IMG/VR virus record: IMGVR_UViG_3300045988_136184
Direction: 5' to 3' (one strand)
DNA from: a virus
DNA: 16,591 nucleotides
The position numbers were made by a program, and so were the translations under genes. The notes below the pieces were generated by a model. That model made no database searches. It was given only the letters and a program-made list of their open reading frames with translations, and was not told the origin of the DNA. This document shows, piece by piece, positions 1 through 16,591 of this stretch (within the stretch, counting starts at the first letter, position 1; every line of letters begins with the position of its first letter).

Positions 1-141
1 GCGCGAACTGGGCTGCGCTGGAGAAGAACGCGCCTATCCTGCCGGGCAGTGATTGGAAGAATCCGATGATGTTGTTCACGCACGCGCCGATGAAGTTGGT
101 GAAGTTGCTCCATATCTGCCGACCGCTTTCGGTCTGGGTAA
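1..141. repeat. Terminal overlap copy 1 (identical to 16451-16591)
   Basis: Read directly: gcgcgaactgggctgcgctg...ggtctgggtaa occurs at both ends of the window. It lies inside the tape measure gene, so it is more likely an assembly or circularisation overlap than a physical terminal repeat. Confidence 0.95.
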
Positions 142-1591
142 AGAAGTAGACCAGTCCGGCCACCAGGGCGGCTATGAGCGTGATGATCAGCACGATGGGG
201 TTGGCGTTCATGGCCGCGTTGAGCGCCCATTGGGCCACGGATGCGGCCGTGTTGGCGATGCTGAACCCCTGCAATGCGGAGGATACAGCGGTGATGACGC
301 CCGCGACTTTGAACACGGCGAAGCCGGTGCCGATGCCGACCAGGGCGGCGCTGATGGGTTCCGCGTTCGCGCTCACCCAGTCGCCGAACGCGGTGAGTTT
401 TCCGGCCACATCGCCCACGATGACGGCCGCGCCGTTGAAGGCGTCGCCCAACGCGGTGCCCGCTCCGGCCGCGCCGCCCATCGAGTCGAGCAGGGGCGTG
501 AACTGGCCGATGAGGTCGCCGGCGGCTCCGGCGAGGCTCTTGCATGACTCCCAGACGGCGGCGAAGATATCGCCGGCGGCCTGTGCGGGGCCGGTGTTCT
601 GGAACGCGGTGAGGAAGTCGGAGACCTTCTGTTTCGCGGTGTCGAACGTGCTGGCGGCGGTACCCCGGATGGTGAGCAGGAAGTCCACGACGGGGCTGTC
701 CTCCTCCACGCTGAACGCGTCGCGCAGTTCCGCGCTGAAGTCGCCGTCGCGCACGAGTTTGATGACGCCTTGCAGGCCGGTGGTCGCCTTGCCGCTGAAC
801 GCGCTGATTTTGTCGGCGGCGACGCTCATGGCGGAGGTGACCGTCGGCTTGAACAGGTTGAACGCATCGGTCAGGCCGCCGACCACGGCGGCTTCGAGGT
901 TGCCCATGGCTCCCTCCATGGTGGAGGTGCTGGTCGCGGCCTCTTTGGCGACGTCGCTCATGCCGAGGTCCATGATCGCGGCGGAGAACTCGTCCGCCGT
1001 GATCTCGCCCTTCTCCATGGCGTCCCTGAAATTGCCGGTGTACGCGCCGGCCTTGAGCATGGATTCCTGGAGCCGGCCGGCCGCACCGGGGATGGCGTCG
1101 GTCAGCTGGTTCCAGTTCTCCGTCGTGAGCTTGCCGGCTCCGGCGGTCTGGGTCATGACCATGGCCACGCTTTTGAACGTGTCGGCGTTGCCGCCTGCCA
1201 CGGCGTTCAGATTGCCTGCCGCCTCGGTCAGGCCCACGTAGTCCTTGACTCCGTTGGCGGCGAGCTGGGCGGTGGTGTTCTGCACGGTCGCGAGGTCGTA
1301 GACCGTGCGGTCCGCGTATTCCCGTGTGGCCTTGGTGGCCTGGTTTATGGCGGTGGTGTCCAGTCCGGCGAAGCCCATGGTCTGCTTGAACTTGTCGATG
1401 CTGTCGCTCATGTCCACGACGGCGGCGCTGAAGCCCTTGAGCTTGTCCCACAGGGCGGTCACGCCCTTGACGGCCATGCCGCCCATGAAGCTGCCGAAGG
1501 CGGCGGCTTTGCCGGTGACCTTGCTGAACGCCTTCACGGCGTCGTCGCTGTTGCCGGTGATTCTCACCGACATGATCGCGCTACGCGCCAT
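1..1591 (-). CDS. Tail tape measure protein, N-terminal 530 codons (continues across the circular junction into 16450-15963)
   Basis: The minus-strand ATG at 1591 is preceded by GGAGGAG. I scanned 1-1591 for tta/cta/tca in this frame and found no in-frame stop. The hand translation starts MARSAIMSVRITGNSDDAVKAFSK. The gene sits directly after the G/GT chaperone. The ORF is missing from the supplied track only because it runs off the window edge. Confidence 0.85.
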   Translation of the reverse strand, partial: MARSAIMSVRITGNSDDAVKAFSKVTGKAAAFGSFMGGMAVKGVTALWDKLKGFSAAVVDMSDSIDKFKQTMGFAGLDTTAINQATKATREYADRTVYDLATVQNTTAQLAANGVKDYVGLTEAAGNLNAVAGGNADTFKSVAMVMTQTAGAGKLTTENWNQLTDAIPGAAGRLQESMLKAGAYTGNFRDAMEKGEITADEFSAAIMDLGMSDVAKEAATSTSTMEGAMGNLEAAVVGGLTDAFNLFKPTVTSAMSVAADKISAFSGKATTGLQGVIKLVRDGDFSAELRDAFSVEEDSPVVDFLLTIRGTAASTFDTAKQKVSDFLTAFQNTGPAQAAGDIFAAVWESCKSLAGAAGDLIGQFTPLLDSMGGAAGAGTALGDAFNGAAVIVGDVAGKLTAFGDWVSANAEPISAALVGIGTGFAVFKVAGVITAVSSALQGFSIANTAASVAQWALNAAMNANPIVLIITLIAALVAGLVYFFTQTESGRQIWSNFTNFIGACVNNIIGFFQSLPGRIGAFFSSAAQFA

Positions 1592-2008
1592 GTTCCATCT
1601 CCTCCATGCGTTCCATCTCCTGTTCGAGCAGTCTTATCGCGGTGCCCCAGTCCAGTTCGCTGGCCTCGTTGCGCCATGCCCACGGCGCGCCGCCGAAGCG
1701 GTGGGCGAGGATGACGCTGAGCATGCCGAGCGAATCGTCGGGCCACGCGGCTATTCGGTAGGGTTTTCCGGCGTCTCCACGTCGATGTCGTCCACGTCGT
1801 CGAGCCACTGGTCGTATGGTTTGGACGTGTTGCCGGCGAACCTCATAGCGAGGTACGCCATGTAGTAGGACTGGCGGATTCGGCTGCCCTCTCCGGCGGC
1901 CCATCCCTCCTTCTGCGCGTGCTCCTCGCATGAGGTGATGACGCGCGGGGTGAGCGGGGCCTCGTTGGAGGTGCCGTCCACGTAGGTGACTTTCGCAATG
2001 TTGCGCAT
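1581..2008 (-). CDS. Tail assembly chaperone G-T fusion made by a programmed -1 frameshift (about 142 aa)
   Basis: G codons start at positions congruent to 1 mod 3. The overlapping ORF 1581-2138 is congruent to 2 mod 3, which is the -1 frame on the minus strand. Only the tail of that ORF (KPYRIAAWPDDSLGMLSVILAHRFGGAPWAWRNEASELDWGTAIRLLEQEMERMEEMEHGA) looks protein-like. Its stop at 1581 overlaps the tape measure ATG at 1591. Confidence 0.6.
1751..2008 (-). CDS. Tail assembly chaperone (gpG-like), 85 aa
   Basis: Located immediately upstream of the tape measure gene. It has an acidic C-terminus (DDVDDIDVETPENPTE), an AAGGAG RBS 9 nt upstream of the ATG at 2008, and an overlapping -1 frame that stays open to 1581. 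Confidence 0.7.
   Translation of the reverse strand: MRNIAKVTYVDGTSNEAPLTPRVITSCEEHAQKEGWAAGEGSRIRQSYYMAYLAMRFAGNTSKPYDQWLDDVDDIDVETPENPTE
1763..1769 (-). promoter_or_regulatory. Candidate -1 slippery site G GAA AAC
   Basis: The minus strand reads CCG GAA AAC CCT ACC GAA TAG in frame 0 and GGA AAA CCC TAC in frame -1. This is the only homopolymer-like run in the last 60 nt of G. It is not a perfect X XXY YYZ heptamer. Confidence 0.4.
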
Positions 2009-2011
2009 GGG

Positions 2012-2395
2012 TTATGCTCCTTTGACTTGTTCCATGGTTTTCTTGATGAACCGTTCGTATTCCTTCGTCCACTGGCCTTCGGTCGAGGCCACGGCGTCGT
2101 TCACGAACGTTCTCGGCTTGATGTGCCGCGCGGGCCAACCGTAATTGATCGGTCCCGCATACGGCACGGTCTTGCGGCCGGCACGGATGATACCGGCCTT
2201 CTGGGTCGCGCCCACACGTATCGATCCGGCGAGCTTGCCGGTCCTTCCGCGTGGCGCGCGGGCCACCGCCTCAGGCTTGGCGATGTCGGCGGCCCGCCGG
2301 TTGACCTCCTTCAGCTCCTTCATGTCGGCGCCGGCCTTGCGCATGGTCTGTACGAAACGCTTCTGACCGACGACGTACAGGGCCTTGTCGGCCAT
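2012..2395 (-). CDS. HK97 gp10-family neck / tail-completion protein, 127 aa
   Basis: The segment ARAPRGRTGKLAGSIRVG...VPYAGPINYGWPARHIKPRTFVNDA matches my recollection of the gp10-family pattern (AP..TG.L..SI...YA..vEfG...PFl). Confidence 0.65.
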   Translation of the reverse strand: MADKALYVVGQKRFVQTMRKAGADMKELKEVNRRAADIAKPEAVARAPRGRTGKLAGSIRVGATQKAGIIRAGRKTVPYAGPINYGWPARHIKPRTFVNDAVASTEGQWTKEYERFIKKTMEQVKGA

Positions 2396-2396
2396 G

Positions 2397-2819
2397 TCAG
2401 GCGCTCGTCGGCGTGTACGCCGACGCCTTCACGTCGGTGGCGGAAAACTCGAAATCCTTCTTGTTCTTCGTCTTCACGTCACCGCCGAACGCGATGGGCG
2501 CGATGGTCACGCGCATGTCCAGCTGGAGCTTGCCGGCAGTGTTCGGCACGAACTTCGCAGCCTTCGTCTCGCCGGCGTGGTTCAGGCAGTAGACTTGCGC
2601 GCCGTTCATGCTGTAGTCCTCGGCGATGCTTCCCGACAGCTTCCACGACGTCGTGAGCGCGCCGCCCTCCTCGTGGCCGTCCAGGTACGTGTCGGGGTCC
2701 TCGCTGGAATTGTCCGGCGACAGTTCCACGCTCGTGCAATCGACGTCCAGCTTGTACTGGTCGTCTGAGGAGCCGATGACCAGGCTTCCCGGTCCCAGGG
2801 TACGGATTTTGTCCGCCAT
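2397..2819 (-). CDS. Putative major tail (tube) protein, 140 aa
   Basis: MADKIRTLGPGSLVIGSS...VTIAPIAFGGDVKTKNKKDFEFSATDV has a beta-rich composition typical of actinophage tail tube proteins. It has its own RBS (AAAGGAA). The position is consistent with a tube protein, although the gp10-like gene lies between it and the chaperones. Confidence 0.55.
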   Translation of the reverse strand: MADKIRTLGPGSLVIGSSDDQYKLDVDCTSVELSPDNSSEDPDTYLDGHEEGGALTTSWKLSGSIAEDYSMNGAQVYCLNHAGETKAAKFVPNTAGKLQLDMRVTIAPIAFGGDVKTKNKKDFEFSATDVKASAYTPTSA

Positions 2820-2836
2820 GATGGTTGTTCCTTTCG

Positions 2837-3202
2837 TTAGATTTCATTGAGTGTGATCTGGTAGGCCGCGAGCGTCGCGTCTCCACGCGTGAAGCCGACG
2901 GGCTCGGCCGATGTGACAGGCAGCGCGGACGCCGCGAGCCGGTCCATCGCGGCCAGTAGCAGCGGCAGCGCGGACGCCTGCGCCCAGGGACTGCCGGCGA
3001 CGAACACGAGCCGCACCGATAGTTCGTTTTCCGCGCCCGCGTAGGGCCATGCCACTTCGGGGGGTTTGACCCATACGCAGACCTTGCCGCGTGGCGGCTT
3101 CACCTCGGTCTCGTCGATGGTGACGTGTTCCACGAGGTCGCCGCACGCGCCGGCCACCTGTTCCATGAGCGCGTCGATCTTGCCGGTGATGGTGTTTGTC
3201 AT
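2837..3202 (-). CDS. Head-tail joining / tail terminator-like protein, 121 aa
   Basis: The real start is MTNTITGKIDALMEQ at 3202, which forms an ATGA overlap with the upstream stop. The 67 Arg-rich residues upstream in the track ORF are rejected. The functional call rests on position between the connector and the tube protein. Confidence 0.5.
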   Translation of the reverse strand: MTNTITGKIDALMEQVAGACGDLVEHVTIDETEVKPPRGKVCVWVKPPEVAWPYAGAENELSVRLVFVAGSPWAQASALPLLLAAMDRLAASALPVTSAEPVGFTRGDATLAAYQITLNEI

Positions 3203-3525
3203 GCGATCCCCATTCCCGCGAGCACGCCGGCGGCGCGGAGCTTCGGCCAGGCGGCGCGCAACGGGTCGGCGGAGACGCGGAACGGTTCGATGGCGTCGCT
3301 GTCCACGTTCATCACGCCGTTGCGCGCGTCCTTCTGGTTGAACAGGTCGGCGGCGACCGCCAGCACGCAATCGGACTGGATCAGGTCGGGCACCGTGTCC
3401 CACGTCTCGCCCAGGTTCGTCGACAGGTAGGCGCGCGCCGTCGCCAGACAGTCGTCGGCGCGCGTCTCGTCGTCGCTGCCGATGACGTTCATCATCGACA
3501 GGAACTTGTCATGCAACTGGTCCAT
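3199..3525 (-). CDS. gp6-like head-tail connector (adaptor) protein, 108 aa
   Basis: It is the first gene after the capsid gene. Its size and sequence (MDQLHDKFLSMMNVIGSDDETRADDCLATARAYL...) fit the Phage_connect_1 type. Confidence 0.6.
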   Translation of the reverse strand: MDQLHDKFLSMMNVIGSDDETRADDCLATARAYLSTNLGETWDTVPDLIQSDCVLAVAADLFNQKDARNGVMNVDSDAIEPFRVSADPLRAAWPKLRAAGVLAGMGIA

Positions 3526-3535
3526 GTGCGCCTAC

Positions 3536-5110
3536 TCAGGCGGCGGCCTTCGGACCCAACGGCATGACGCCGCCGGTGAACACGGTCGCGAACGCCGCGT
3601 AACCGTACACGCTGTAATTGGAAAGCAGTTTGGTGGTGTCGTCCTGCTGGAGCTGGAAGGGGCCGCCGGCCTCCCACATCTGCAACGCGGTCGGGTCGAT
3701 GAACGCGGCCGTGTTCGCGGCGGCACCCGGCACCATCTGCACGGGGACGGACAGCATGCGGCCGGTGATGCCGGTAAGGCTCAGGCTGCCGAGCTTGTCC
3801 ACGCCCTCGCCGGACACGTCCATGAGCGCGTCGCCGCTGCGCGTGATCTTCGCCATCTTGTCAAATACGTCCTTGCTGACCGCGAGCGTGCCGAGCTGCG
3901 CGCCTCGGCCGTCCGCCGCCTCGGCCGCGTTGATGATGACGGTAATCCACTGGTCGGCGGTGAGCGCGCTCACGGCCGCCGGCGTCTCCAGCTTGTTCGC
4001 TGCGGCGCCGGTGATGGCGGCAGTCAGCTGCGCGCGGGCCGCCGCCTCCACCGCGTTGCTGTAAGCGATGGTGAGCGCGCGGAGCGCGGTATCGAGCGCG
4101 GGCGTGTTGCTGCGTTCGATGACCTGGCGCGACAGCGGCGCGTAACCTCCATAGGTCTTCACGGCGGCGGTCGCGCTCGTGAGCGTGATTTTGCCGGTGG
4201 TCAGGGCCGCGCCCTCGGCCGTCTGTTCGGCCACCTTCAGCGTGTTAGAGCCGAGCTTGAGATATTCCAGCGTCATGCCGGTGGCCGGCAGCGCGGCATG
4301 CTGGAACAGGTTCGCGACGCTACGGCGCGACTGGATGAGCTTGATCTGGTCGGCGACCCACTCGTTAGTGTTGTTCGTGTCGGCGCTGGAAATCAGGTCG
4401 CGGGCCTCGCGCATGAACTCATACGCGGTGTCGTCGCCGGCCGCAAGCGCCTTCGCGAACTCGCCGGCCGAACGGTATTGGCCACCGATGACGTGCGGCG
4501 GGTCCGGCTTCTGCCGGCCGATGGTGTCCGCGAGCGAACGGATCTGCATTTCGAGCTGGTCGAAACGCGATTCCGTCGCCGGCTGCTGTTCGTTTTCCAC
4601 TGTTTCCTCCTTGGTGTCGGTTTCCTGGTTGACGTGTTCCTGGTCCCGTTGGCCGGTGATGGCCGCGCCCGTGTACGCGGGTATGCCGGTGACGGCGACC
4701 TCAAGCAGTTTCACGGCGCGCCGCACGTACACGCTCGTGTCGCCCTCGGTGCGCTTGTCGGTGGTCACGGGCATGAAGCCCACGCTGAACGAATCAAGCA
4801 CGCCGTCGCGGATCAGCTGCACGGCGTCGCGACCCTCGGCCGTGTCGCTGATTGACGCGGTGATGTGCAATCCGTCGGCCTCGCGCGTCGCGTTCGTGAC
4901 CTTGCCGATGAGACGGCCGTGGTCACGGCTCAACTTGGTGCGTGTCGTGTCGCCGAAATCGCAATCCGGCGCGAACTCCTCGGCCGCGCCGCGCCACAAT
5001 CCGATGCGTTGGCCGAACGGCACGGCGATGCCCTCGATGCGGGTACCGTCGCCCTGGTCCTCGCGTAGCTCGATGCCCTTCACGGTGATGGTGCGTACCT
5101 CTTCGCTCAT
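3536..5110 (-). CDS. Prohead protease (HK97 / S78 type) - scaffold-like linker - HK97-fold major capsid protein fusion, 524 aa
   Basis: The N-terminus carries protease motifs (IEGIAVPFG, DHGRLIGKV, LDSFSVGF). The middle is an acidic or coiled segment (QETDTKEETVENEQQPATESRFDQLEMQIRSLAD). The C-terminal roughly 270 aa is capsid-like (AEQTAEGAALTTGKITLTSATAAVKTYGGYAPLSRQVIERS...). It is a single uninterrupted ORF. The ATG at 5110 has a GGAGG RBS and forms an ATGA overlap with the portal stop. Confidence 0.8.
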   Translation of the reverse strand: MSEEVRTITVKGIELREDQGDGTRIEGIAVPFGQRIGLWRGAAEEFAPDCDFGDTTRTKLSRDHGRLIGKVTNATREADGLHITASISDTAEGRDAVQLIRDGVLDSFSVGFMPVTTDKRTEGDTSVYVRRAVKLLEVAVTGIPAYTGAAITGQRDQEHVNQETDTKEETVENEQQPATESRFDQLEMQIRSLADTIGRQKPDPPHVIGGQYRSAGEFAKALAAGDDTAYEFMREARDLISSADTNNTNEWVADQIKLIQSRRSVANLFQHAALPATGMTLEYLKLGSNTLKVAEQTAEGAALTTGKITLTSATAAVKTYGGYAPLSRQVIERSNTPALDTALRALTIAYSNAVEAAARAQLTAAITGAAANKLETPAAVSALTADQWITVIINAAEAADGRGAQLGTLAVSKDVFDKMAKITRSGDALMDVSGEGVDKLGSLSLTGITGRMLSVPVQMVPGAAANTAAFIDPTALQMWEAGGPFQLQQDDTTKLLSNYSVYGYAAFATVFTGGVMPLGPKAAA

Positions 5111-6228
5111 AATGTGACCTCCTGCGGTGTGGTCTGGTTGATCGGCGCCCATCCCTCACGGGCGCGCGCCTCGTCCACCGTCATGAATCCGGCGGATATG
5201 GCGGTCTGGTAGGCGCTGTAACGGGTGTTCGTGTCGGAACGATGCAACGAATCCCAGTCGGGCATGCACCATTGCCCCTCAGGCAGCAGCGACGTGAGGG
5301 CCTCGCAAATCTCGTCAGCGTAGGCCGACAAAGTGTATTCCGCGAACGTGAGCCACTCTTGCTCGATGTTCGAGTAGGTCAGCGAAGTGCCTTCCACCTT
5401 CGCGAGCATCAACGACGCCGGGATGCCCAACAGGCGGGCTATCTGCGTGGTGTTGAACTGCTGGGACTCGATGAATTGCAGGTCTTCGGGGCTCAACGCC
5501 AACGGCGTGTAGTCCAGGCCCTTGCCGAGCACGCGCACGCCGCCGGCGCCGCCCTTCGCCCACCGTTCGCTAGCGGTCCTCGCGTCCTGGTCGCTTAATA
5601 TCTGGTCGCTTTTCAGGATGCCGGCGGGCCGCGCCGTGTTGTCCAACCAGTTCGATGCGTAGGCGCGAGTGTCCTGCGCTCCCTCGATCTCCTCGCGGGC
5701 CGCGCTGATAGGGCCCATGCCGCGCAAACGGCCGGCCACGTTCAACAGCTTCAGATGCACGATGCGGTCGGCGCCGTAGTCCACGCCACGGTACGAGTAG
5801 CGCAAGCGCGGGTTAGCCGGGTCCATGTTCAGGTCAGTGACGGTCACGAGCTGGGGTGGCAGACTGCGCACTCCCACGAGCACGCCGCCCGCCTCGACCT
5901 TGAGCAGGAACGCGTTACCGTTCAACGCGAGAGCGGAAACGAGGTCGCCGAACAGGTCGCGGCGGCTACGGTTCAGGTCGGGCCGGGTGATGAGCGTGCT
6001 CGGCCGCATGCGCGAGCCGTCCGGCGCGTACTGGATCAGCGGCAGCTTGCTGACCGCCGTCTCGATGATCTGCACGCCGCGAAATACGGTGGACAACGCC
6101 AGCGGGTCATGCGACGTGGACAATCGCGGCGGCAATGTCGGCGCGTCCGCTTCCTCCACGTCGTCCGTCGTCTGCGCCGCGCGAAGCAACAGGGCGGCGG
6201 TGTTGGAGATGCGGGAAATGAAGCTCAT
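5107..6228 (-). CDS. Portal protein (HK97 family), 373 aa
   Basis: Located between the large terminase and the protease-capsid gene. The sequence shows typical portal features (ALSTVFRGVQIIETAVSKLPL..., QFNTTQIARLLGIPASLM). Confidence 0.85.
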   Translation of the reverse strand: MSFISRISNTAALLLRAAQTTDDVEEADAPTLPPRLSTSHDPLALSTVFRGVQIIETAVSKLPLIQYAPDGSRMRPSTLITRPDLNRSRRDLFGDLVSALALNGNAFLLKVEAGGVLVGVRSLPPQLVTVTDLNMDPANPRLRYSYRGVDYGADRIVHLKLLNVAGRLRGMGPISAAREEIEGAQDTRAYASNWLDNTARPAGILKSDQILSDQDARTASERWAKGGAGGVRVLGKGLDYTPLALSPEDLQFIESQQFNTTQIARLLGIPASLMLAKVEGTSLTYSNIEQEWLTFAEYTLSAYADEICEALTSLLPEGQWCMPDWDSLHRSDTNTRYSAYQTAISAGFMTVDEARAREGWAPINQTTPQEVTL

Positions 6229-6279
6229 GCGGCCGATTCAACCGCCCGCCGGCGCGCCACGCCGAAACCGGCGTATAAG

Positions 6280-10063: not shown

Positions 10064-10182
10064 GGTCGTTCCATCCCAGAAACTCGGCCGCCGCGGCCCA
10101 CGCCAGACACAAGCCCAGCGAGAACAGCACGAGCGGCGAAACAACAAGCAGCACGACGAACTGGCAGATTTCGCGGCGGACG

Positions 10183-10428
10183 TCACGCCTCTTCGATATC
10201 GAGTTGCACGGCGTCGGGTATCGACTTGATGCAGCAAATCAGCTCATAGCCCGCGTACTCGGGTATCGAGCCGGTGGTAAGCACGATGGCCGGCGCGTCC
10301 TTGTCGTCCGTGAAGCAGCGCACCGGGCCACAGGACCATTTCACGCTGTTCTTCGTCTGGAGCCGGAACACCACGAGGTCGCCCGGCCGCACGTCCCCGG
10401 GCTCGGTCGAAATCTCATACCGCATCAT
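10183..10428 (-). CDS. Hypothetical protein, 81 aa
   Basis: The start is MMRYEISTEPGDV at 10428 or 10425, overlapping the end of the zinc-ribbon ORF by 14 nt. I recognise no family. Confidence 0.5.
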   Translation of the reverse strand: MMRYEISTEPGDVRPGDLVVFRLQTKNSVKWSCGPVRCFTDDKDAPAIVLTTGSIPEYAGYELICCIKSIPDAVQLDIEEA

Positions 10429-10588
10429 GCGCCGCCTCGTCATGCTTCGGCATGCCGCACTTCGGGCAACGCGCCTGAGGCGGATAGATGAACCAACCAT
10501 GCGCCTTCGCGTGCTGGTCCGCCGCGACGTTCCACGGCACCGTCATGGTGAAACCGCAATCATCGCACTTCACGACGTGATACATCAT
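10415..10588 (-). CDS. Small zinc-ribbon protein (CxxC...CxxC), 57 aa; not in the supplied ORF track
   Basis: The hand translation is MMYHVVKCDDCGFTMTVPWNVAADQHAKAHGWFIYPPQARCPKCGMPKHDEAAHDAV-stop. The ATG at 10588 forms an ATGA overlap with the upstream stop, and the TGA lies at 10417-10415. Confidence 0.55.
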   Translation of the reverse strand: MMYHVVKCDDCGFTMTVPWNVAADQHAKAHGWFIYPPQARCPKCGMPKHDEAAHDAV

Positions 10589-10767
10589 CGGTCCTGCTCC
10601 CTTGCATTCAGAAAACGATTGATCTCCTCACGCCACTGCCTCAAATCGGCCGGCGACGCGTCGAATTCCAGGCCGCAATGCGCCGCGAAATAATCCGGGA
10701 ACGACACACGGAACATGCGGTATTCCTCGGCTTCGGCGTTCAAACAAATCGACATGCGCATGGTCAC
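10585..10767 (-). CDS. Hypothetical protein, 60 aa (GTG start)
   Basis: The GTG at 10767 forms a GTGA overlap with the cro-like stop; an alternative ATG lies at 10761. I recognise no family. Confidence 0.45.
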   Translation of the reverse strand: MTMRMSICLNAEAEEYRMFRVSFPDYFAAHCGLEFDASPADLRQWREEINRFLNAREQDR

Positions 10768-10979
10768 GCCTCCAACGGCTTCGCGTAATCGGAACGGCCT
10801 GTGAGGTAATCAAGCGACACGTCGAACGCGTCGGCGATTTTCCGCATGTCCTTCAAGGTGAAGTTGGTGCGGCCGTGAAACTTGTCGCTCACGGCCTGTT
10901 CGGACACGCCCAGCACCTCGGCTAGGTCGCGCTGCTTCAGGTGGTGGGCCCTCAACAGTCTTCGGATATTGCTAATCAA
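10764..10979 (-). CDS. Cro-like XRE-family HTH regulator, 71 aa from TTG 10979 (the maximal ORF extends to GTG 11054, 96 aa)
   Basis: HTH core: NIRRLLRAHHLKQRDLAEVLGVSEQAVSDKFHGRTNFTLKDMRKIADAFDVSLDYL. The TTG at 10979 has GAAGG 5 nt upstream and leaves the operator repeats intergenic. The GTG at 11054 has no RBS and would bury an operator inside the ORF. Confidence 0.7.
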   Translation of the reverse strand: MISNIRRLLRAHHLKQRDLAEVLGVSEQAVSDKFHGRTNFTLKDMRKIADAFDVSLDYLTGRSDYAKPLEA

Positions 10980-10993
10980 ATCTGCCTTCTTCG

Positions 10994-11015
10994 TAGAAGC
11001 TACTGAATATCTGTA
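10994..11015. promoter_or_regulatory. Operator-like repeat copy A (tagaAGCTACtGAATATCtGTA)
   Basis: 19 of 22 positions are identical to copy B, 64 bp away. It is an imperfect internal palindrome. A shorter third relative, ACTGAATCTG, lies at 11033-11042. A candidate -35 TTGACG for the minus strand lies at 11030-11025. Confidence 0.55.
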
Positions 11016-11057
11016 ATTACTACACGTCAAAAACTGAATCTGCAACCGCGACACGCC

Positions 11058-11079
11058 TAGTAGCTACGGAATATCCGTA
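11058..11079. promoter_or_regulatory. Operator-like repeat copy B, containing the perfect 7-3-7 palindrome CTACGGA-ATA-TCCGTAG
   Basis: Read directly (palindrome at 11063-11079). It sits just upstream of a TAAATT -10-like hexamer (11081-11086) and the repressor start codons (GTG 11088, ATG 11094). This is compatible with a leaderless transcript. Confidence 0.55.
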
Positions 11080-11087
11080 GTAAATTA

Positions 11088-11510
11088 GTGGTTATGACAG
11101 CAACAATGACAATGCCGAACGCGATGCGTAGGCAAGATGTAGTAGCAAAGAACGTTGGTTTGATGGTGAAGGCGCGTGGGCTGAAGAAGAAGGATCTAGC
11201 GCAAGCGATGGGGATTTCCCCTCAGGCTGTTTCCACGCGGTTGCAGGGTACTGCCAATTGGACGCTAGACGAGGCTTGCGCGGCTGCCGATTTTCTCCGC
11301 GTGCCGCTGGACACACTTCTTCGCGCGTCGCTTACCGCCGGCGAGGTGCTGGGGTATGAAAAAACCGCCGCCCCGGATGATTCCGGGAACGGCGGTCAAT
11401 TGGTAGCGGGGCATGGATTTGAACCATGGACCTCTGGTAACGTTGTTGCCCAGAGGTCCACGGTTCAAATCCATGAAGCCCGATTATTTGATTTTATCCT
11501 AGCGGCGTAA
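11088..11510 (+). CDS. CI-like XRE-family HTH repressor, 140 aa viral form; its 3' third reads through the attP core and it ends in ...ILAA
   Basis: HTH: VAKNVGLMVKARGLKKKDLAQAMGISPQAVSTRLQGTANWTLDEACAAADFLRVPLDTLL. Codons from about 105 onward (GGQLVAGHGFEPWTSG...) are the complement of a tRNA 3' end. The terminal codons are atc cta gcg gcg taa, encoding I L A A stop. Confidence 0.75.
   Translation: MVMTATMTMPNAMRRQDVVAKNVGLMVKARGLKKKDLAQAMGISPQAVSTRLQGTANWTLDEACAAADFLRVPLDTLLRASLTAGEVLGYEKTAAPDDSGNGGQLVAGHGFEPWTSGNVVAQRSTVQIHEARLFDFILAA
11401..11437 (-). other. attP core: 3' terminal fragment of a tRNA gene (no 5' half, so not a functional tRNA)
   Basis: The minus strand reads CCAGAGGTC-CATGG-TTCAAAT-CCATG-CCCCGCT-A-CCA. 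This is a perfect T-arm, 7-nt acceptor strand, discriminator and CCA. The upstream sequence does not fold into anticodon, D or 5' acceptor arms. It lies next to the integrase gene. Confidence 0.75.
11412..11475. repeat. 26-bp inverted repeat (one A/C mismatch) with a 12-nt spacer; the left arm is the tRNA-fragment T-arm region and the right arm is a degenerate inverted copy
   Basis: Left arm 11412-11437 is catggatttgaaccatggacctctgg. The spacer is taacgttgttgc. Right arm 11450-11475 is ccagaggtccacggttcaaatccatg. Confidence 0.9.
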
Positions 11511-11528
11511 TGCCGCCGGCCGCCAAGG

Positions 11529-12368
11529 ATGCCGGCCGTGAGTATGCACAAAAAGCTGCCCCCTGCTCAGTGGCGGGACGAAATCACCCTATGGCTCGAA
11601 TCGCTCACGGCGGCGGGCCTCAGTCAGGACACCGTCAACACGCGGCGGTGCAAGATAGGCCACGCGGCGCGGTGCCTGGATAAATCGCCCTATGACGTGA
11701 CGTCGGAGGATCTAGTGCATTGGACCGCCTCGCAATCATGGAAGGCGGAGACGCGCAAGGGCTACCGAAACACGCTCGTCGGTTTTTTCCGGTGGCTGCA
11801 TGCCACGGGCCGGCGCGCGGACGATCCGGCCGCCGCGCTGCCGAAGGTGCGCAAGACGCGGCCGCATCCCCGCCCGTGCCCCGACGTGCACATATACGCT
11901 GCCATGTGCGCCGCGAACGATGTGGAACGGCTCATGCTGCGTCTCGGAGCAGAAGCCGGGTTGAGGCTGTCCGAAATCGCGGCCGTCCACTCGCGCGACG
12001 TGCTGGAAGGCGACGCCGGCCCGTCGCTGATAGTGCGGGGCAAGGGCGACAAACAGCGCATAGTGCCCATAAGCGAGGACCTGGCGAAGCGGATAACGGC
12101 CGCGCCCGGTTGGCTGTTCCCCGGCCGGTGGCGTGGACACGTCGAAAAATCGTATGTGTCCCGCCACCTCACACGGCTGCTGCCGGACGGTTGGGGGCCG
12201 CACTCGCTGCGCCACCGGTACGCCACGCGCATGTACGAGACCACGCACGATCTGCTGCTGGTCTCGAAACTGCTGGGACATAGCAGCGTGGAGACCACGC
12301 AAATCTACGTGGCGATGCCGGACAGCCGTCTGCGCGTCGGTCTGGACGCGGTGACGTTGGCCGGCTAG
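11529..12368 (+). CDS. int: Tyrosine integrase (XerC/D-sized, 279 aa; the start could be 11529, 11538 or 11544)
   Basis: Catalytic signature residues: Arg in AGLRLSEI, Lys in GKGDKQRIVPI, HxxR in HSLRHRYAT, and H...Y in LGHSSVETTQIYV. An N-terminal SAM-like core-binding region is present. There is no room for a separate arm-binding domain. Confidence 0.9.
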   Translation: MPAVSMHKKLPPAQWRDEITLWLESLTAAGLSQDTVNTRRCKIGHAARCLDKSPYDVTSEDLVHWTASQSWKAETRKGYRNTLVGFFRWLHATGRRADDPAAALPKVRKTRPHPRPCPDVHIYAAMCAANDVERLMLRLGAEAGLRLSEIAAVHSRDVLEGDAGPSLIVRGKGDKQRIVPISEDLAKRITAAPGWLFPGRWRGHVEKSYVSRHLTRLLPDGWGPHSLRHRYATRMYETTHDLLLVSKLLGHSSVETTQIYVAMPDSRLRVGLDAVTLAG

Positions 12369-12622
12369 GCCGCGTGCTGCGCGCGCGACTTGGGCGTGAT
12401 TGGGTTGTCCTTCCACCACGCCCATAGCGCGGCGCCCACGTTCCATGTGAGGGCGACGAGCTGGTTAACCGTCTCGTCAGCGATGGGGATGGTATCGACG
12501 CCGAACATGACCAGGCAAGCGTTAATCAAGCCGAGCAGCAGCACGGCGGCGCGGGCGATGGTCGCGGCGCTGACGCCGGGGGTGCGGGTGTCGCCGCCCT
12601 CCACTTGTTCTTCGTATTCCAT
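12365..12622 (-). CDS. Holin, 85 aa, two predicted TM helices
   Basis: Located immediately downstream of the endolysin, with a GGAAGGA RBS. The hydrophobic segments are AAVLLLGLINACLVMFGV and LVALTWNVGAALWAWW, followed by a basic tail (WWKDNPITPKSRAQ). From memory this resembles the WWKNNxxT motif of SPP1/phiLC3-type holins. Confidence 0.6.
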   Translation of the reverse strand: MEYEEQVEGGDTRTPGVSAATIARAAVLLLGLINACLVMFGVDTIPIADETVNQLVALTWNVGAALWAWWKDNPITPKSRAQHAA

Positions 12623-12624
12623 GG

Positions 12625-13479
12625 CTATCCTTCCTTTTCGGTGGTCTTGTCGGTGGCGGTCACGCTGATTTCCAGCGAGTCCAGCTTCGCGCGCACGGCG
12701 TCCGCGACGATCTTGGATATGTCGGCCGGGTTCGCTCCCAGCGCCTTGCTAAGCGCCTCGATCGCGGCGGTCTGCGCCGTCAGCTGGGTTTTGAGGTCGG
12801 CTATGTCGTAACGCGCCTGGATGACGCTATCCAACACGTTGCGGCCGTCGTTGCCCTTGGTCTGGATCAACGCGTCGGCGGCCCGGTCCTTGAGCTCGTT
12901 CCGGGTCTGGATGATTCCATCGAAGAGATTGCGGCCGTCGTTGCCCTTGGTCTCGTAAAGGTCTTGCGCACTCACTGTTCCTGCTCCTGTCAAAAGTTGG
13001 TTTGCTTTGTTGATTACATAATCCACGTCCAGACCATTCGCGGCCCGGTCGGGACATCCTGCGTGATCGCTGCCTGGTATCTCTCGGTGCAACCACACGT
13101 TGCCTTTTAGCCCGTCGTGCCATAGGCGCGGCCAGCCGTATCGGCGCGCGATGTCCGCGCACAAGGCGGCGCTAGCGTCCATGCACGCCTTGGTGCAGGG
13201 GACGCCGGCCATGCCGCCTTCGTGCTCGATGCTGATGGTCTGGCAGTTCGACGCATAGTTGCTGTCGGTCCACGGCGCGTCAGTTTCTCGCACATACTGG
13301 TGGATCAGGCCCGTGGAGCCGATGCCGTATGTGCTGGACGCCTGGCGCACCGGATTCTGAAACGTCGCGTCGGTGCCGGCGAGACGGCCTACCATGATGT
13401 GCAGGGTGATGTGCGTGACCTCGTAGCCGTTGCGTCCCGCGTAGTGGTTGGGGCTGCCTATCCATGTGCTATTGACCAT
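12625..13479 (-). CDS. Endolysin: N-acetylmuramoyl-L-alanine amidase (Amidase_2 / PGRP fold) with a repeat-containing C-terminal region, 284 aa
   Basis: Zinc-ligand pattern: THITLH ... WLHREIPGSDHAGCPD. The RBS AAGGAG lies 8 nt upstream of the ATG at 13479. The C-terminus has two 30-aa repeats, TKGNDGRN(L/V)(F/L)D..IQ.R, followed by a coiled segment. Confidence 0.85.
   Translation of the reverse strand: MVNSTWIGSPNHYAGRNGYEVTHITLHIMVGRLAGTDATFQNPVRQASSTYGIGSTGLIHQYVRETDAPWTDSNYASNCQTISIEHEGGMAGVPCTKACMDASAALCADIARRYGWPRLWHDGLKGNVWLHREIPGSDHAGCPDRAANGLDVDYVINKANQLLTGAGTVSAQDLYETKGNDGRNLFDGIIQTRNELKDRAADALIQTKGNDGRNVLDSVIQARYDIADLKTQLTAQTAAIEALSKALGANPADISKIVADAVRAKLDSLEISVTATDKTTEKEG
12849..12963. 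repeat. Two perfect 25-bp direct repeats (ttgcggccgtcgttgcccttggtct) 90 bp apart inside the endolysin gene
   Basis: The copies lie at 12849-12873 and 12939-12963. They encode the TKGNDGRN cores of the 30-aa protein repeats. Confidence 0.9.
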
Positions 13480-13493
13480 TCATTTGTCTCCTT

Positions 13494-13736
13494 TCAATCG
13501 TCTCGATGCTCGAAAAGCCCTTCCGGTGGCTCAGGCGGTGGTGGCGGTGCTCGCCGGTATATGTGATCCACGAGAGCACGGTTCCATTGCCACAACAGGG
13601 AATTGTCGGTCTGCATCTGTTGCGCGAGCCGGTACGCCTCCAACCGGTCGCGCGAGGCGGTTGCTACGGTCTGGATAATCGCGCCCAGCACCACGCCGGC
13701 GACGCCGACCACCGACACGATTGCTTCCTCGCTCAT
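13494..13736 (-). CDS. Small membrane protein with an N-terminal TM helix (possible second holin or lysis regulator), 80 aa
   Basis: The real start is MSEEAIVSVVGVAGVVLGAIIQTVA at 13736, forming an ATGA overlap with the upstream stop. It has a Pro-rich C-terminus (APPPPPEPPEG) and lies directly upstream of the endolysin. Confidence 0.55.
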   Translation of the reverse strand: MSEEAIVSVVGVAGVVLGAIIQTVATASRDRLEAYRLAQQMQTDNSLLWQWNRALVDHIYRRAPPPPPEPPEGLFEHRDD

Positions 13737-14437
13737 AGCTCCACCACGTTGAGATAGCCGGCCACGCGCATTGTGCCGCTGTTGTTGGAGTAGAACGAGA
13801 CCTGGATTCCGCCGGTGCCGTCGGATTCGATGACGGTCACACACTCAATTGCGCTGAACGCATTACCAGAGGTGCTTGATTCCGCCGCACTCGGGAGCAG
13901 TGACGAGGCGCCTCCTACCGTCGCCACCCCGATGCTTAGCCATGTCATGTCTGCGATACCGGAGAACTGCATGTATTCTTTGACCAGCCATCGGCCGGCC
14001 GGCAGAATCGCATACGCGCCCTTGCTATTGGCAGTCGTCTTGATGTCGGCGCTTCCGGTCACGTTGGAGAACATCATGTATGTGTCGCCGTTGTTCAGGA
14101 TGAGGTCGTTCGCGGATCTTTTGAACCGGCAGCCCCACGTGCGTTTCTGTCGAATCTCCACGGGGTGCCAGGCGTCGCCAAGACGGTAGTACAGACCATT
14201 GCGTTGCATGGTGTCACCGGTGACCACGCCTGATTGTCCATTCACGCCTTCCAGTGACTCCAATGTCTCCAGCGTGGTTGCAGTCACTGGCGATACGCCT
14301 TCGGGGGTCGCTCGCGCGTCGATTTCGCGCAAGACCTTTTCGACGCCTTCTGCCGTCTGTCGGAACTGTGTGGGGGCGGACGATACGAGTTCATCGGCCT
14401 CGATATAGGGGATGCCGTACACGCTTGTGGTCTTCAT
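13733..14437 (-). CDS. Minor tail protein / putative receptor-binding protein, 234 aa
   Basis: The real start is MKTTSVYGIPYIEADELVSSAPTQFRQTAEGVEKVLREID at 14437 (ATGA overlap). This N-terminal pattern is common in actinophage tail fibre or minor tail proteins. It is the last structural gene before the lysis genes. The 155 upstream Arg-rich residues of the track ORF are rejected. Confidence 0.6.
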   Translation of the reverse strand: MKTTSVYGIPYIEADELVSSAPTQFRQTAEGVEKVLREIDARATPEGVSPVTATTLETLESLEGVNGQSGVVTGDTMQRNGLYYRLGDAWHPVEIRQKRTWGCRFKRSANDLILNNGDTYMMFSNVTGSADIKTTANSKGAYAILPAGRWLVKEYMQFSGIADMTWLSIGVATVGGASSLLPSAAESSTSGNAFSAIECVTVIESDGTGGIQVSFYSNNSGTMRVAGYLNVVEL

Positions 14438-15963
14438 CCTTGTGATCCTTCCTGTGTTGGTTGTGAGAATTGTCGAATTAACGCGAGCTCGGCTAGTGTG
14501 AACCGGCACATGTCCCATGTGACGGGCCATGCACCCATATCCGCCCACGTGGTCGCGGTATCGGTCTTGACGGGCAACGGCCATAACGTGACCTCGTTGC
14601 GGAGCAACGGCCGCCCGCTCGACCACTGGTAGGTGAGCGTGCCGCCGATGGTCGCCCACGCGCCGCCCGCGGCGGGTATGCCGTCGTCGCCGGTGAGACG
14701 TGACGACGTGGCGCCCTGGATGACGAGCGGCCCGGAACTGGCGGTGAGATACAGGCGCGCGTGCGTGGCCGGGTCCAGCTTGCGGCCGTCGAACACCACC
14801 GTTGCCGGCCGTAACCGCCGGTCGATGGTGACGAGCAGTCGGGCGAACGCGTCGCGATCCGCGTCGGTCGGGGCCCACACGCTGCCGCCCGCGCGGCCCC
14901 ATACGCCGCCCGACTCGTCGGCCGTCACCACGTCGGCCTCAACGGTGACGCTGGATTGCGTGGCCTTCAGGTTCGCCGGCAGCCGGCCCATGTCCGTCAA
15001 AGCAGTTTCGTGCTGGTCGAACTCAAGCGCGCCGTCGGACGCTTTCGCTGTCTTGCCCTGAATAACGAACTGGGTGACGGGTTCCGGGATCGTCAATGAT
15101 TGTTCGTCGTCGGTGATGACGTCGGCGGCGTCCAGGCCGTCCAGCGTCTCGCCCGTCCAGTCGGTCACGGTAAGTCGGGCTGTGTCGTCGATGCCGATGC
15201 TGGCGGGCGCGCCGAACGGCATGTAGTCGATGCGGCTCGCGTCGCGGTCGGGGTATTCATACCACAGCGGCCACATTCGTGAGTGCGCGTAGAGACGGTG
15301 GAGCAGGGCGAGCTGTGACGGGTAGTCGTCGGTCCGGTAGGGTGCCACGGATGCGGTGATGGGGAGACCGTTGGCGTTGGCCTGCGGCGCGTCCGCCTCC
15401 CCGGCACGTCGGTTGAGCTCCGTCAATCGTTCGGCCATGGTGCCGACCCAGTGCAGGCCCGTGTAGCGTGCGTCGGACGAGATGGGCCCTTGTTTCTGCA
15501 TTCTTTTCCACAGGATCATGCGGCTGGAGGCGCTGAGTTCCAGTAGCCAGCCGTCGCCGTGGGACCGGGTTTCGCCGCCGTTCTGCACCAGTCCGTCGAA
15601 CAATGTCGTCGCCGTGCTGGACTTGCCGGACGGGTTGCCGGGCGTGTACGCCTGGTGCATCGCGTCCAAACGCATGCGCTGCGCCGACCATGCGCCCATG
15701 TCGTCGCTGAGCATGCCCCATGTGGGTTGTGCCGAGATCTGCACGAGCACGCGCGCGCCGGCCAGGGCGAGGGCGCGGCCGGTGAGCCAGCCGGTCGAGT
15801 CGCGCAGCCGGAACGTCATCACGGACGGTTCGGGCTGCTGGTCGATGCCGTCGGTGCCCCACTGGATGCTGAAGCCGTCCAATGCGGCCACGTCGTTGTC
15901 GTGGTCGTTGACGGCAACCCAGCCGTCGCCCCAGTCGAGGAACATGAAACACTGCTGCGCCAT
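14434..15963 (-). CDS. Minor tail protein, distal-tail (Dit)-like N-terminus with a long C-terminal extension, 509 aa
   Basis: The real start is MAQQCFMFLDWGDGWVAVND at 15963. It forms a TGATG junction with the tape measure stop and has a GCGAGG RBS. The position directly after the tape measure gene supports the call. The upstream 200 residues of the track ORF overlap the tape measure frame and are rejected. Confidence 0.6.
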   Translation of the reverse strand: MAQQCFMFLDWGDGWVAVNDHDNDVAALDGFSIQWGTDGIDQQPEPSVMTFRLRDSTGWLTGRALALAGARVLVQISAQPTWGMLSDDMGAWSAQRMRLDAMHQAYTPGNPSGKSSTATTLFDGLVQNGGETRSHGDGWLLELSASSRMILWKRMQKQGPISSDARYTGLHWVGTMAERLTELNRRAGEADAPQANANGLPITASVAPYRTDDYPSQLALLHRLYAHSRMWPLWYEYPDRDASRIDYMPFGAPASIGIDDTARLTVTDWTGETLDGLDAADVITDDEQSLTIPEPVTQFVIQGKTAKASDGALEFDQHETALTDMGRLPANLKATQSSVTVEADVVTADESGGVWGRAGGSVWAPTDADRDAFARLLVTIDRRLRPATVVFDGRKLDPATHARLYLTASSGPLVIQGATSSRLTGDDGIPAAGGAWATIGGTLTYQWSSGRPLLRNEVTLWPLPVKTDTATTWADMGAWPVTWDMCRFTLAELALIRQFSQPTQEGSQG

Positions 15964-16591
15964 CAGTTGCCTCGCTTCCGGTCGTAGTCGCGGAGAATCT
16001 TCCTGATTTCGCGTGCCACGCCCTCGCGGTCCACGGGCGCGTTGAACGTGACGTTGAAAACGGTGGCCGTACTGGCCGCCTGACTGCCGGCGGTGGTACC
16101 GCCGTTGAACACGACGTTGGACAGGCGGCCGTTGATGTTGCCGATGGCGCGGCGCACGTCGGTGTCGAAGCCGAGGCCAAGGCCTTTGGCGAGGCCCTGC
16201 ATGATGAGGCGGCCGTTTTTCACCAGCAGCACCTTGTCGTAGGCGGCGGGGCCCTTGTGCTCCGCGATCCAGTCGGCGATGCCGCCGATGAACCCGGTCA
16301 CGTTGTTCCACGCGGATTTCAGACCGTCGAGGAAACCCTCGATGATGCTTGAGCCCGCGTTCCACAGCAGCCGTCCAACGTTGCCGATGGCGGACAGGAT
16401 GCGGCCGGGCAGTCCACTGAACCAGCTGACCACGTTGTTCCACGTGTTCTGCGCGAACTGGGCTGCGCTGGAGAAGAACGCGCCTATCCTGCCGGGCAGT
16501 GATTGGAAGAATCCGATGATGTTGTTCACGCACGCGCCGATGAAGTTGGTGAAGTTGCTCCATATCTGCCGACCGCTTTCGGTCTGGGTAA
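15963..16591 (-). CDS. Tail tape measure protein, C-terminal part (16451-16591 duplicates 1-141); the whole protein is 692 aa
   Basis: The track ORF 15963-16529 (NNIIGFFQSLPGRIGAFF...KILRDYDRKRGN) is open up to the window end. Position 16529 corresponds to position 79, which is in frame with the ATG at 1591. The sequence has Gly/Ala-rich repeats and a hydrophobic segment, as is typical of tape measure proteins. Confidence 0.85.
   Translation of the reverse strand, partial: TQTESGRQIWSNFTNFIGACVNNIIGFFQSLPGRIGAFFSSAAQFAQNTWNNVVSWFSGLPGRILSAIGNVGRLLWNAGSSIIEGFLDGLKSAWNNVTGFIGGIADWIAEHKGPAAYDKVLLVKNGRLIMQGLAKGLGLGFDTDVRRAIGNINGRLSNVVFNGGTTAGSQAASTATVFNVTFNAPVDREGVAREIRKILRDYDRKRGN
16451..16591. 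repeat. Terminal overlap copy 2 (identical to 1-141)
   Basis: Same 141-nt string as the window start. Confidence 0.95.

Follow-up and report, generated by a model that had tools for sequence, protein, structure and literature searches.

A closed 16,450-bp genome, very probably of a temperate siphovirus-type Bifidobacterium phage, with the architecture of integration-dependent immunity at a tRNA-Met gene

The window analyzed in this work is the whole 16,591-nucleotide (nt) stretch of the IMG/VR virus record IMGVR_UViG_3300045988_136184, in which the genes of a small tailed phage and an integrase-repressor-cro (int-rep-cro) module were recognized. Among the closest described systems are two prophages of Bifidobacterium breve, Bb423phi2 (18,221 bp) and 689b-1 (18,260 bp), which reside at a tRNA-Met gene next to metA, the same tRNA-Met site for which the elements Bl-1 and Bbr-1 were cited (Mavrich et al. 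2018, PMC6109161). In both B. breve prophages int lies at one end and rep at the opposite one, the repressor in its reconstructed viral version bears 18 extra residues with an ssrA-like tag, and the published attachment (att) sequence comprises 39 bp, i.e., TGGTAGCGGGGCATGGATTTGAACCATGGACCTCTGGGT (PMC6109161). The two prophages differ in a segment of about 500 bp, which is invertible and has no recombinase of its own, and it was argued that they may be functional despite their size, in a genus that often carries larger prophages of approximately 40 kb (PMC6109161).

Integration-dependent immunity was described for the mycobacteriophages BPs, Brujita, and Charlie, in which a switch composed of int, rep, and cro works without an excisionase (PMC3694055). 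The same type of immunity was reported for the Gordonia phages of Cluster CW (GMA5 among them), which are temperate, have genomes of 17.1-17.7 kb, form turbid plaques, and use over 80% of their coding capacity for virion genes (Pope et al. 2017, PMC5559632). Further small genomes are available in phage-collection records, e.g., those of the Gordonia phages SallySpecial (15,896 bp; annotated with a tyrosine integrase and an immunity repressor) and EricDab (16,658 bp), and in none of the three records of Quaker (a Microbacterium phage), SallySpecial, and EricDab is a replication gene annotated. The first-pass annotation of the window had regarded a temperate member of the small-siphovirus class as unusual, a view contradicted by SallySpecial, the Cluster CW phages, and the bifidoprophages described in 2018. 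A gene layout dominated by structural genes is common to these small actinobacteriophages. Temperate siphoviruses of such a size that have no replication genes are thus an established type, of which the window is a somewhat smaller representative from the B. adolescentis/B. longum lineage.

Taking all the evidence together, we consider it very probable that the window represents, in the excised (attP) configuration, the complete 16,450-bp genome of a temperate siphovirus-type Bifidobacterium phage with integration-dependent immunity and a tRNA-Met target. The first 141 nt of the window are identical, base for base, to its last 141 nt, which closes a circle of 16,450 bp with a G+C content of 64%. 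Through the join runs a tape measure open reading frame (ORF) of 692 amino acids (aa), read in frame on the minus strand from 15963-16450 and then 1-1591; its prophage copies match the TMP_3 domain (PF20155). Both the terminal identity and the continuity of the tape measure gene had been noticed in the first-pass annotation and hold. The two parts of this gene within the window are:

1-1591, minus strand: tape measure protein, N-terminal part (gene start at 1591; TMP_3 domain in the prophage gene of identical length)
15963-16591, minus strand: tape measure protein, C-terminal part (positions 16451-16591 are the repeat of 1-141)

The proposal that the 141-nt overlap reflects the k-mer of an assembler is plausible, as contigs of relatives deposited in ENA bear names of the k141_... 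type. A 1,600-nt segment centered on the join was aligned with an integrated prophage of the complete genome CP150432.1 (locus L005) without a single gap and with 99.75% identity, and the same segment is contiguous, at 78-93% identity, in nine other fetched loci, which represent seven distinct prophage copies. The gapless match over 1,600 nt to an integrated prophage indicates that the join is genuine, and the possibility of a chimeric mis-join, raised when the sequence was first read, can be set aside. The same applies to the suspicion that the window might be a fragment of a larger parent genome. In CP007443.1, which we take to be B. adolescentis 22L, the att cores of the prophage are 16,445 bp apart (calculated from the record coordinates and the alignment ends), so that the window corresponds to the whole element and not to a piece of a larger one. 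In a distant relative, with a capsid identity of 46%, the cores are separated by 16,428 bp and are likewise placed at tRNA-Met. A capsid-profile scan of the genome collection gave at least four close loci among the matches listed, a figure that does not amount to a host-range census. Judging from the compared sequences, this family of small Bifidobacterium phages is genus-wide and its genome size is conserved.

The att site and the lysogeny switch, both central to this reading, comprise the following elements:

10764-10979, minus strand: cro-like helix-turn-helix (HTH) protein (Pfam HTH_3 5.3e-13), first gene of the long leftward operon, divergent from rep
10980-11093, no strand assigned: cro-rep control region of 114 bp with two 22-nt direct repeats and the lowest G+C content of the genome
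11094-11510, plus strand: immunity repressor in its viral form, 138 aa from the ATG at 11094 or 115 aa from the ATG at 11163 (Pfam HTH_3 2.3e-7; PHROG transcriptional repressor)
11400-11437, minus strand: attP common core of 38 bp inside the repressor ORF, composed of the 3' 37 nt of the host tRNA-Met(CAT) plus 1 nt
11450-11475, plus strand: inverted second copy of the T-arm part of the core, a 26-nt inverted repeat with 11412-11437 (96% complementary)
11529-12368, plus strand: tyrosine integrase of 279 aa (Pfam Phage_integrase 1.5e-20, residues 124-263)

The core covers the tRNA from the variable loop to the CCA end, starting at tRNA position 41, and the homology to the prophage flanks ends exactly at position 11400 (int side) and position 11437 (rep side). 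An intact tRNA-Met gene is rebuilt at the rep-side junction, as predicted by ARAGORN, and it stands beside a gene with the PF04204 domain (HTS, the homoserine O-succinyltransferase/MetA family). In the window itself ARAGORN found no tRNA, as only the 3' fragment is present there, and a search against Rfam gave just two sub-threshold matches to miRNA precursors, which are caused by the att hairpin. The core agrees with 37 of the 39 published bases of the Bb423phi2/689b-1 att site, the other two being host-side. In the target tRNA at positions 4752-4828 of locus L012 (CGCGGGG...CCCCGCTACCA), bases 1 and 72 form a mismatched pair and three G:C pairs in a row adjoin the anticodon loop. Both features are hallmarks of initiator tRNA, and on this basis the attB gene is probably that of tRNA-fMet, not of the elongator tRNA-Met.

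The inverted second copy, separated from the core by 12 nt in the downstream direction, lies between the crossover site and int and stays with int in the prophage. The hairpin predicted for this inverted repeat (RNA folding energy of -57.8 kcal/mol, z-score of -8.2) is followed by a T-rich stretch, and the VQIH motif encoded by the inverted copy is kept in most of the related repressor tails that have the tRNA-Met core. This copy could serve as a second pair of integrase-binding half-sites or as an attenuator of int expression. As regards the integrase, a length of 279 aa with the catalytic domain at residues 124-263 leaves no room for an N-terminal arm-binding domain. Its identity to the integrases of the Gordonia phages EricDab and GMA5, as well as to those of mycobacteriophages of about 41 kb (gene 32; presumably Cluster G, the BPs group), amounts to 44-47%. 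The protein ends with ...GLDAVTLAG, a hydrophobic terminus resembling the ssrA ending but distinct from LAA.

The localization of the core within the coding sequence of the repressor gives this protein two alternative C-termini. The viral form ends with ...GFEPWTSG-NVVAQRSTVQIHEARLFDFILAA, whose C-terminal 23 residues finish with ...FDFILAA, i.e., with an ssrA-like LAA, whereas the prophage form, found in seven fetched prophage copies (two of them with another N-terminus), has 116 aa and ends with ...GFEPWTSGL, its stop codon falling over the complement of the tRNA anticodon loop. Among IMG/VR relatives the tails differ in sequence, yet they end with ILAA, MLAA, NLAA, VLAA, or ILTA, even in a group with a different attP; in one group the ending is ALVD instead. 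This pattern points to selection acting on the ending of the repressor tail.

The genes rep and int are adjacent and co-oriented, and cro is divergent from them across a short control region. Together with the attP core within rep and with the tagged viral and untagged prophage repressors recognizable at the sequence level, this makes the int-rep-cro arrangement of the window an integration-dependent immunity architecture as defined previously (PMC3694055). Each of the two 22-nt repeats of the control region (10994-11015 and 11058-11079) holds a 6-3-6 palindrome of the TACGGA-ATA-TCCGTA type, and both are likely operators for the repressor and/or Cro. In the proposed mechanism, the short, arm-less tyrosine integrase would insert the phage genome into the 3' end of tRNA-Met next to metA. 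As attP lies inside rep, the free genome would encode a repressor with the 23-residue, LAA-ended tail, which, by analogy with the mycobacteriophage model, would be expected to direct the protein to ClpXP-type proteolysis. Integration would exchange this tail for a single leucine followed by a stop codon and could in this way yield a stable repressor, and lysogeny would then require integration, which is the essence of integration-dependent immunity. In loci L017 and L018, the region at 4077-4753, corresponding to 10764-11437 of the window, encodes a different Cro and a different N-terminal domain of the repressor, i.e., another immunity type, and retains the identical core-encoded C-terminal segment PDDSGNGGQLVAGHGFEPWTSGL despite this replacement.

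The host and the att site inside the repressor gene had both been overlooked in the first-pass annotation. In the assembly collection, the exact integrase protein occurs in 5,365 blocks and the exact portal protein in 3,023; the places that were fetched lie in chromosomes, and the gene order is shared by complete genomes of 2.2-2.5 Mb and large metagenome contigs. All public names attached to these proteins and to their relatives are those of Bifidobacterium species (B. adolescentis, B. longum, B. pullorum, B. pseudolongum, B. lemurum, B. scardovii, B. reuteri, B. felsineum, and B. imperatoris), which identifies the element, as far as its sequence relatives tell, as a prophage of B. adolescentis, B. 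longum, and related bifidobacteria. Contigs of this family with a length of 16.2-16.9 kb are numerous in the protein database.

Two of the fetched loci show more complex junctions. In L003 (CP118598.1, positions 2313-9882), a third copy of the tRNA-Met core is present 7.6 kb past the int-side core of the prophage and delimits a second integrative element, which encodes its own integrase (409 aa), a Rep_OBD protein, a BsuBI/PstI-type restriction enzyme, and an Eco57I-type methylase; this arrangement is a tandem accretion at the same tRNA. In L009, a scaffold of 256 kb, a repressor-like gene with a different N-terminus continues through the core into the viral tail ...FDFILAA, with int directly downstream (9329-9982), and this attP-like hybrid junction was presumably left by a neighboring or earlier element.

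Compared with the published bifidoprophages, the element of the window shares with Bb423phi2, 689b-1, Bl-1, and Bbr-1 the Bifidobacterium host, the position at the tRNA-Met 3' end by metA, and the att core TGGTAGCGGGGCATGGATTTGAACCATGGACCTCTGG, and with the B. breve prophages also the placement of int and rep at opposite prophage ends, the ssrA-like extension of the repressor lost on integration, and a gene content that is mostly structural. It differs from Bb423phi2 and 689b-1 in length (16,450 bp versus about 18,220-18,260 bp), in the repressor tail (23 versus 18 residues), in its occurrence mainly in genomes of the B. adolescentis/B. longum type, and in that its attP junction is joined. The B. 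breve prophages were compared by their published description, and their kinship with the window is suggested by the host genus, the att site, and the architecture. The likeness to BPs, Brujita, and Charlie concerns the three-gene switch of about 1.6 kb, attP inside rep, the tagged viral and untagged prophage repressor, and the arm-less integrase, which is 44% identical to gene 32 products of the mycobacteriophages of about 41 kb; unlike these 41-kb phages, the window has about 16 kb, an integrase ending with TLAG, and a 26-nt inverted copy of the core before int.

Whole-genome megablast of the window against 50,697 phage records gave no match, and relationships with cultured phages were visible at the protein level. 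With the small temperate Gordonia phages (GMA5 and Jeanie of Cluster CW, as well as SallySpecial, EricDab, and Emperor), the window shares the 15.9-17.7-kb size class, the order of modules, a capsid-protease fusion, an HNH gene by the terminase, and rep and int transcribed opposite to the rest. Integration-dependent immunity at a tRNA gene, as proposed for the window, was reported for the Cluster CW phages, but their target is tRNA-Lys and not tRNA-Met. Similarity reaches 44-47% for the integrase (EricDab, GMA5) and 37-38% for the large terminase subunit, TerL (Emperor, SallySpecial), with no similarity of nucleotide sequences; moreover, the Gordonia phages infect another host order and have lysis genes between the portal and capsid genes, whereas those of the window are located at the end of the tail genes.

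For the head genes, the nearest cultured relatives are Microbacterium phages of cluster EE (Orlajensenviridae; e.g., Quaker, 17,450 bp), with identities of 41% for the portal and 35% for the protease-capsid fusion, and with further resemblance in the adaptor, a gp9-like protein, a membrane protein, genome size, gene order from portal to lysis genes, and the lack of replication genes. Unlike the element of the window, cluster EE phages are lytic and have neither an integrase nor an att-bearing repressor, and BLASTP of the window TerL against that of cluster EE (Quaker) gave no match at E <= 0.01. Their HNH protein is encoded by a separate gene (99 aa) at the right genome end and has no P-loop domain, and in Cluster CW this gene is also separate and short. 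In Quaker too an HTH gene directly precedes the HNH gene, but the two HTH proteins are not similar by BLASTP. Six of the 25 window proteins match Quaker proteins by BLASTP, at 23-41% identity, and there is no megablast match, so the window is not assigned to Orlajensenviridae. It does have the features of small-genome actinobacteriophages (RRH1 and clusters AN, CW, DM, and EE), i.e., a genome below 20 kb, a siphovirus gene set, a capsid-protease fusion, and a related terL and portal.

The ORFs were called from third-position G+C content, ORF structure, and independent gene calls on integrated copies. This gave 25 firm ORFs covering about 94% of the sequence; the chaperone product GT, and a 41-aa ORF that was called in some prophage copies only, raise the total to 26-27, close to the about 27 genes counted earlier. 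Adjacent genes overlap by ATGA (six junctions), GTGA (one, or two with an alternative start of the gene after cro), or TGATG (two), i.e., at 9-10 junctions, slightly fewer than the ten or more reported before; in addition, one overlap has 14 nt, and int and the holin gene converge with an overlap of 4 nt. Most of the gene list proposed previously was confirmed by Pfam and PHROGs. For the small terminase subunit (TerS), the adaptor, a 121-aa protein, the two tip proteins, and a membrane protein of 80 aa, the assignment is based on gene position or on a weak resemblance to cluster EE proteins. The head, tail, and lysis genes are:

7763-8077, minus strand: putative small terminase of 104 aa, assigned by position only (104 aa also in the prophage copies; overlaps terL)
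6315-7766, minus strand: large terminase of 483 aa from the GTG at 7766 (PHROG 9, 3.2e-37)
5107-6228, minus strand: portal (Pfam Phage_portal 1.4e-72; 41% identical to gp4 of Microbacterium phage Quaker)
3536-5110, minus strand: fusion of S78 prohead protease and major capsid protein (Peptidase_S78 2.9e-16; Phage_capsid_4 8.1e-15)
2012-3525, minus strand: four head-tail and tail proteins, some of them similar to Quaker gp6 and gp9, namely:
3199-3525, minus strand: adaptor (position/weak similarity)
2837-3202, minus strand: 121-aa protein (position/weak similarity)
2397-2819, minus strand: major tail protein (PHROG 4.8e-23)
2012-2395, minus strand: Neck1/tail completion/HK97 gp10-like protein (PHROG 6e-12)
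1592-2008, minus strand: tail assembly chaperones G (1751-2008, 85 aa) and GT (142 aa via a -1 frameshift)
13733-15963, minus strand: two tail-tip proteins, 509 aa (14434-15963) and 234 aa (13733-14437), with a weak PHROG minor tail match
12365-13736, minus strand: lysis region, namely:
13494-13736, minus strand: 80-aa membrane protein (38% identical to Quaker gp18)
12625-13479, minus strand: Amidase_2 endolysin (Pfam 8.3e-18)
12365-12622, minus strand: SPP1-type holin (Pfam Holin_SPP1 6.8e-18)

The putative small terminase had no family match in Pfam or PHROGs. TerL is 31-38% identical to the proteins of Emperor (38%), SallySpecial, RRH1 (32%), and Arthrobacter phages of about 15.5 kb, and the protein with 35% identity to the protease-capsid fusion is annotated in cluster EE as a "major capsid and protease fusion protein". 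The in-phase slippery heptamer AAACCCT at 1766-1760 supports the -1 frameshift, and the resulting 142-aa GT ends at the start of the tape measure gene. The tail-tip region is the most variable one among the prophage copies, with identity falling to 77% or with the region replaced. In L007, L008, L015, and L018, the region equivalent to 13494-14437 of the window encodes a shorter second tip protein (197-208 aa), after which comes a small ORF in the opposite orientation; this arrangement resembles the invertible segment of about 500 bp that distinguishes Bb423phi2 from 689b-1, and in these loci the identity to the window is about 77% over the first tip gene.

The remaining features lie between the terminase genes and cro:

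8078-8240, no strand assigned: gap of 163 bp separating terS from the HNH gene and containing a G+C-rich hairpin beside an A/T run, a candidate cos region
8241-8966, minus strand: HNH endonuclease-P-loop kinase-like fusion of 241 aa (Pfam HNH 3.3e-7, AAA_33 3.6e-4; PHROG 4581 4.4e-20)
8963-9133, minus strand: 56-aa HTH_17 (MerR/excisionase-type) protein (Pfam HTH_17 1.8e-7; PHROG 66 3.7e-9)
9133-9465, minus strand: 110-aa protein with a basic N-terminus (18 homologs, the named ones from Bifidobacterium; confined to this Bifidobacterium phage family)
9466-9892, minus strand: non-coding gap of 427 bp separating the early ORFs from the late operon, the sole long non-coding stretch
9893-10761, minus strand: four small early ORFs of 58, 57, 81, and 56 aa, called also in the prophage copies (the 57-aa protein is a zinc ribbon)

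The repressor and integrase genes are transcribed opposite to the rest of the genome, which would form a single long leftward transcription unit starting with cro, the four small early ORFs, and the terminator-bearing gap. The late operon would then comprise the genes for the winged-helix protein (the 110-aa product), the HTH_17 protein, the HNH-kinase fusion, TerS, TerL, the portal, the protease-capsid fusion, the neck and tail proteins, G/GT, the tape measure protein, and the tip proteins, followed by the lysis genes. A scan of the 7900-12700 region for sigma-70-type promoters gave no site. Packaging is probably of the cos type, possibly with the assistance of the HNH nuclease; the contig ends of IMG/VR relatives, mapped in search of cos, turned out to be uninformative in this respect, as the att site is where these prophage entries were trimmed.

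No polymerase, primase, helicase, Rep initiator, general recombinase, or single-stranded DNA-binding protein was detected with Pfam, PHROGs, and two structure predictions, and the earlier statement that no replication genes are recognizable therefore stands. It had also been proposed to examine the ORFans at 9133-10767 for hidden initiators, and none was recognized among these small ORFs, which gave no Pfam or PHROGs family apart from a weak zinc-ribbon match and a sub-threshold match of the 110-aa protein to antiterminator Q (E 0.024). For the 110-aa protein a winged-helix-like fold was predicted (AlphaFold2, predicted local distance difference test (pLDDT) score of 80), with no significant match in PDB and with weak resemblance to DNA-binding proteins of the Rex/ArsR/MarR type (E > 0.3); its role as a replication initiator or regulator is unsupported by these fold comparisons.

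The C-terminal P-loop domain of the HNH fusion has the Walker A motif GPPCVGKT and a predicted fold (AlphaFold2, pLDDT 88) resembling adenylate, gluconate, and polynucleotide kinases and not helicases, primases, or AAA+ initiators; a sequence search of PDB gave no match. Throughout the Bifidobacterium family the fusion is retained, even in members with only 38% identity. PHROGs labels its matching family "terminase small subunit".

Within the 427-bp gap are a perfect palindrome of 10 bp with a T-run (about 9577-9548, minus strand), which resembles an intrinsic terminator, a tandem TCGTCTGCAA repeat, and other inverted repeats, and the gap may act as a terminator, late promoter, or origin. DnaA boxes, with one mismatch allowed, number 8 in the genome versus 3.6 expected (5 of 200 shuffles reach 8) and are scattered, which gives no origin signal, and the GC skew merely follows gene orientation. 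On these sequence features, the gap and the early ORFans are the only candidates for origin or initiator function. A genome without a replication enzyme or a recognizable initiator would have to use the host replisome. A tentative reading, which we consider possible but rather doubtful, is that the phage is fully autonomous and replicates, with no replication enzyme of its own, through an undescribed minimal module recruiting the host replisome. Such a module would combine the 427-bp gap with the 110-aa winged-helix protein and the family-restricted early ORFans (58, 57, 81, and 56 aa), and the HNH-kinase fusion would process DNA ends. In the literature examined, no account was found of how 14-18-kb actinobacteriophages replicate; if true, the phage would be among the smallest self-sufficient temperate tailed phages and would offer a tractable replication model for the whole 14-18-kb actinobacteriophage class.

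Several observations weigh against reading the window as a complete temperate phage with integration-dependent immunity. The element is known here from its sequence, and a circular assembly proves the presence of the attP junction in the sample, not of free virions; an attP-like junction can be chromosomal, as in L009. Bb423phi2 showed neither excision nor replication after treatment with mitomycin C (PMC6109161). With respect to the switch, the integrase ends with TLAG and has no clear LAA-type tag, and a gene of the HTH_17 excisionase family is present, while canonical integration-dependent systems have no xis. This gene belongs to the late operon, where it immediately precedes the HNH gene at a great distance from int (two such genes in tandem, not one, are found in L017 and L018). 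The label "Xis-like", given to its product at first, is doubtful, since such systems work without an excisionase (PMC3694055). Finally, TerS, the tip proteins, and the cos site are placed by position alone.

The alternative that survives best, although we consider it unlikely, is that of a cryptic or defective prophage, which excises or is tandemly duplicated and forms no infectious particles, its small size and absent replication genes being signs of decay. Small bifidobacterial prophages are commonly seen as cryptic remnants (PMC8705816), and this view is favored by the lack of induction of the related Bb423phi2 (PMC6109161) and by the fact that replication genes were not found. However, all 25 ORFs are intact in a sequence that is about 94% coding, and the gene set is kept at a length of about 16.4 kb down to a capsid identity of 46%, with many family contigs of 16.2-16.9 kb in the protein database. 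The immunity and tail-tip modules are swapped among the copies, as in actively evolving phages, and cultured phages of the same architecture and size form plaques, which in Cluster CW are turbid.

It is also quite unlikely that the circle was derived from a tandem double lysogen or a chromosomal hybrid junction instead of a free circle or virion DNA. The chromosomal attP-like junction of L009 and the accretion at this tRNA in L003 (third core, second element of 7.6 kb) demonstrate that such configurations arise, but the repressor of the window is the same as those of simple prophages, with nothing hybrid in it, and a tandem lysogen would alter only the sampled state and not the identity of the element. 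A phage satellite (a phage-inducible chromosomal island (PICI) or a capsid-forming PICI) dependent on a helper also for replication is highly improbable and was rejected together with a gene transfer agent-like reading, as virion, lysis, integrase, and att functions are all present: the size of about 16 kb, the integrase-repressor module, and the absent replication genes are superficially island-like, and the ~40-kb bifidobacterial prophages could be helpers, but the window encodes a full set of head, neck, tail, tape measure, chaperone, tip, and lysis proteins, cultured relatives of the same design grow on strains with no reported helper, satellites usually carry their own replication initiator, and, to our knowledge, known satellites lack at least tails or capsids.

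The window, regarded as the genome of a complete temperate phage, does not represent a new kind of virus; it extends the small tRNA-Met bifidoprophages with integration-dependent immunity to the B. adolescentis/B. longum lineage and supplies a closed, attP-joined genome, whereas the published B. breve relative showed no excision. It raises the questions of how such minimal phages replicate without replication genes of their own and what role is played by the HNH-kinase fusion. As a compact switch of 1.6 kb whose att site is known, int-rep-cro could be put to use as a tool for integration in Bifidobacterium. Considering that the exact integrase was found in 5,365 assembly blocks, the family is widespread in the human gut, and surveys that dismiss bifidobacterial prophages below 20 kb as remnants probably discard a complete phage of a dominant human gut commensal.

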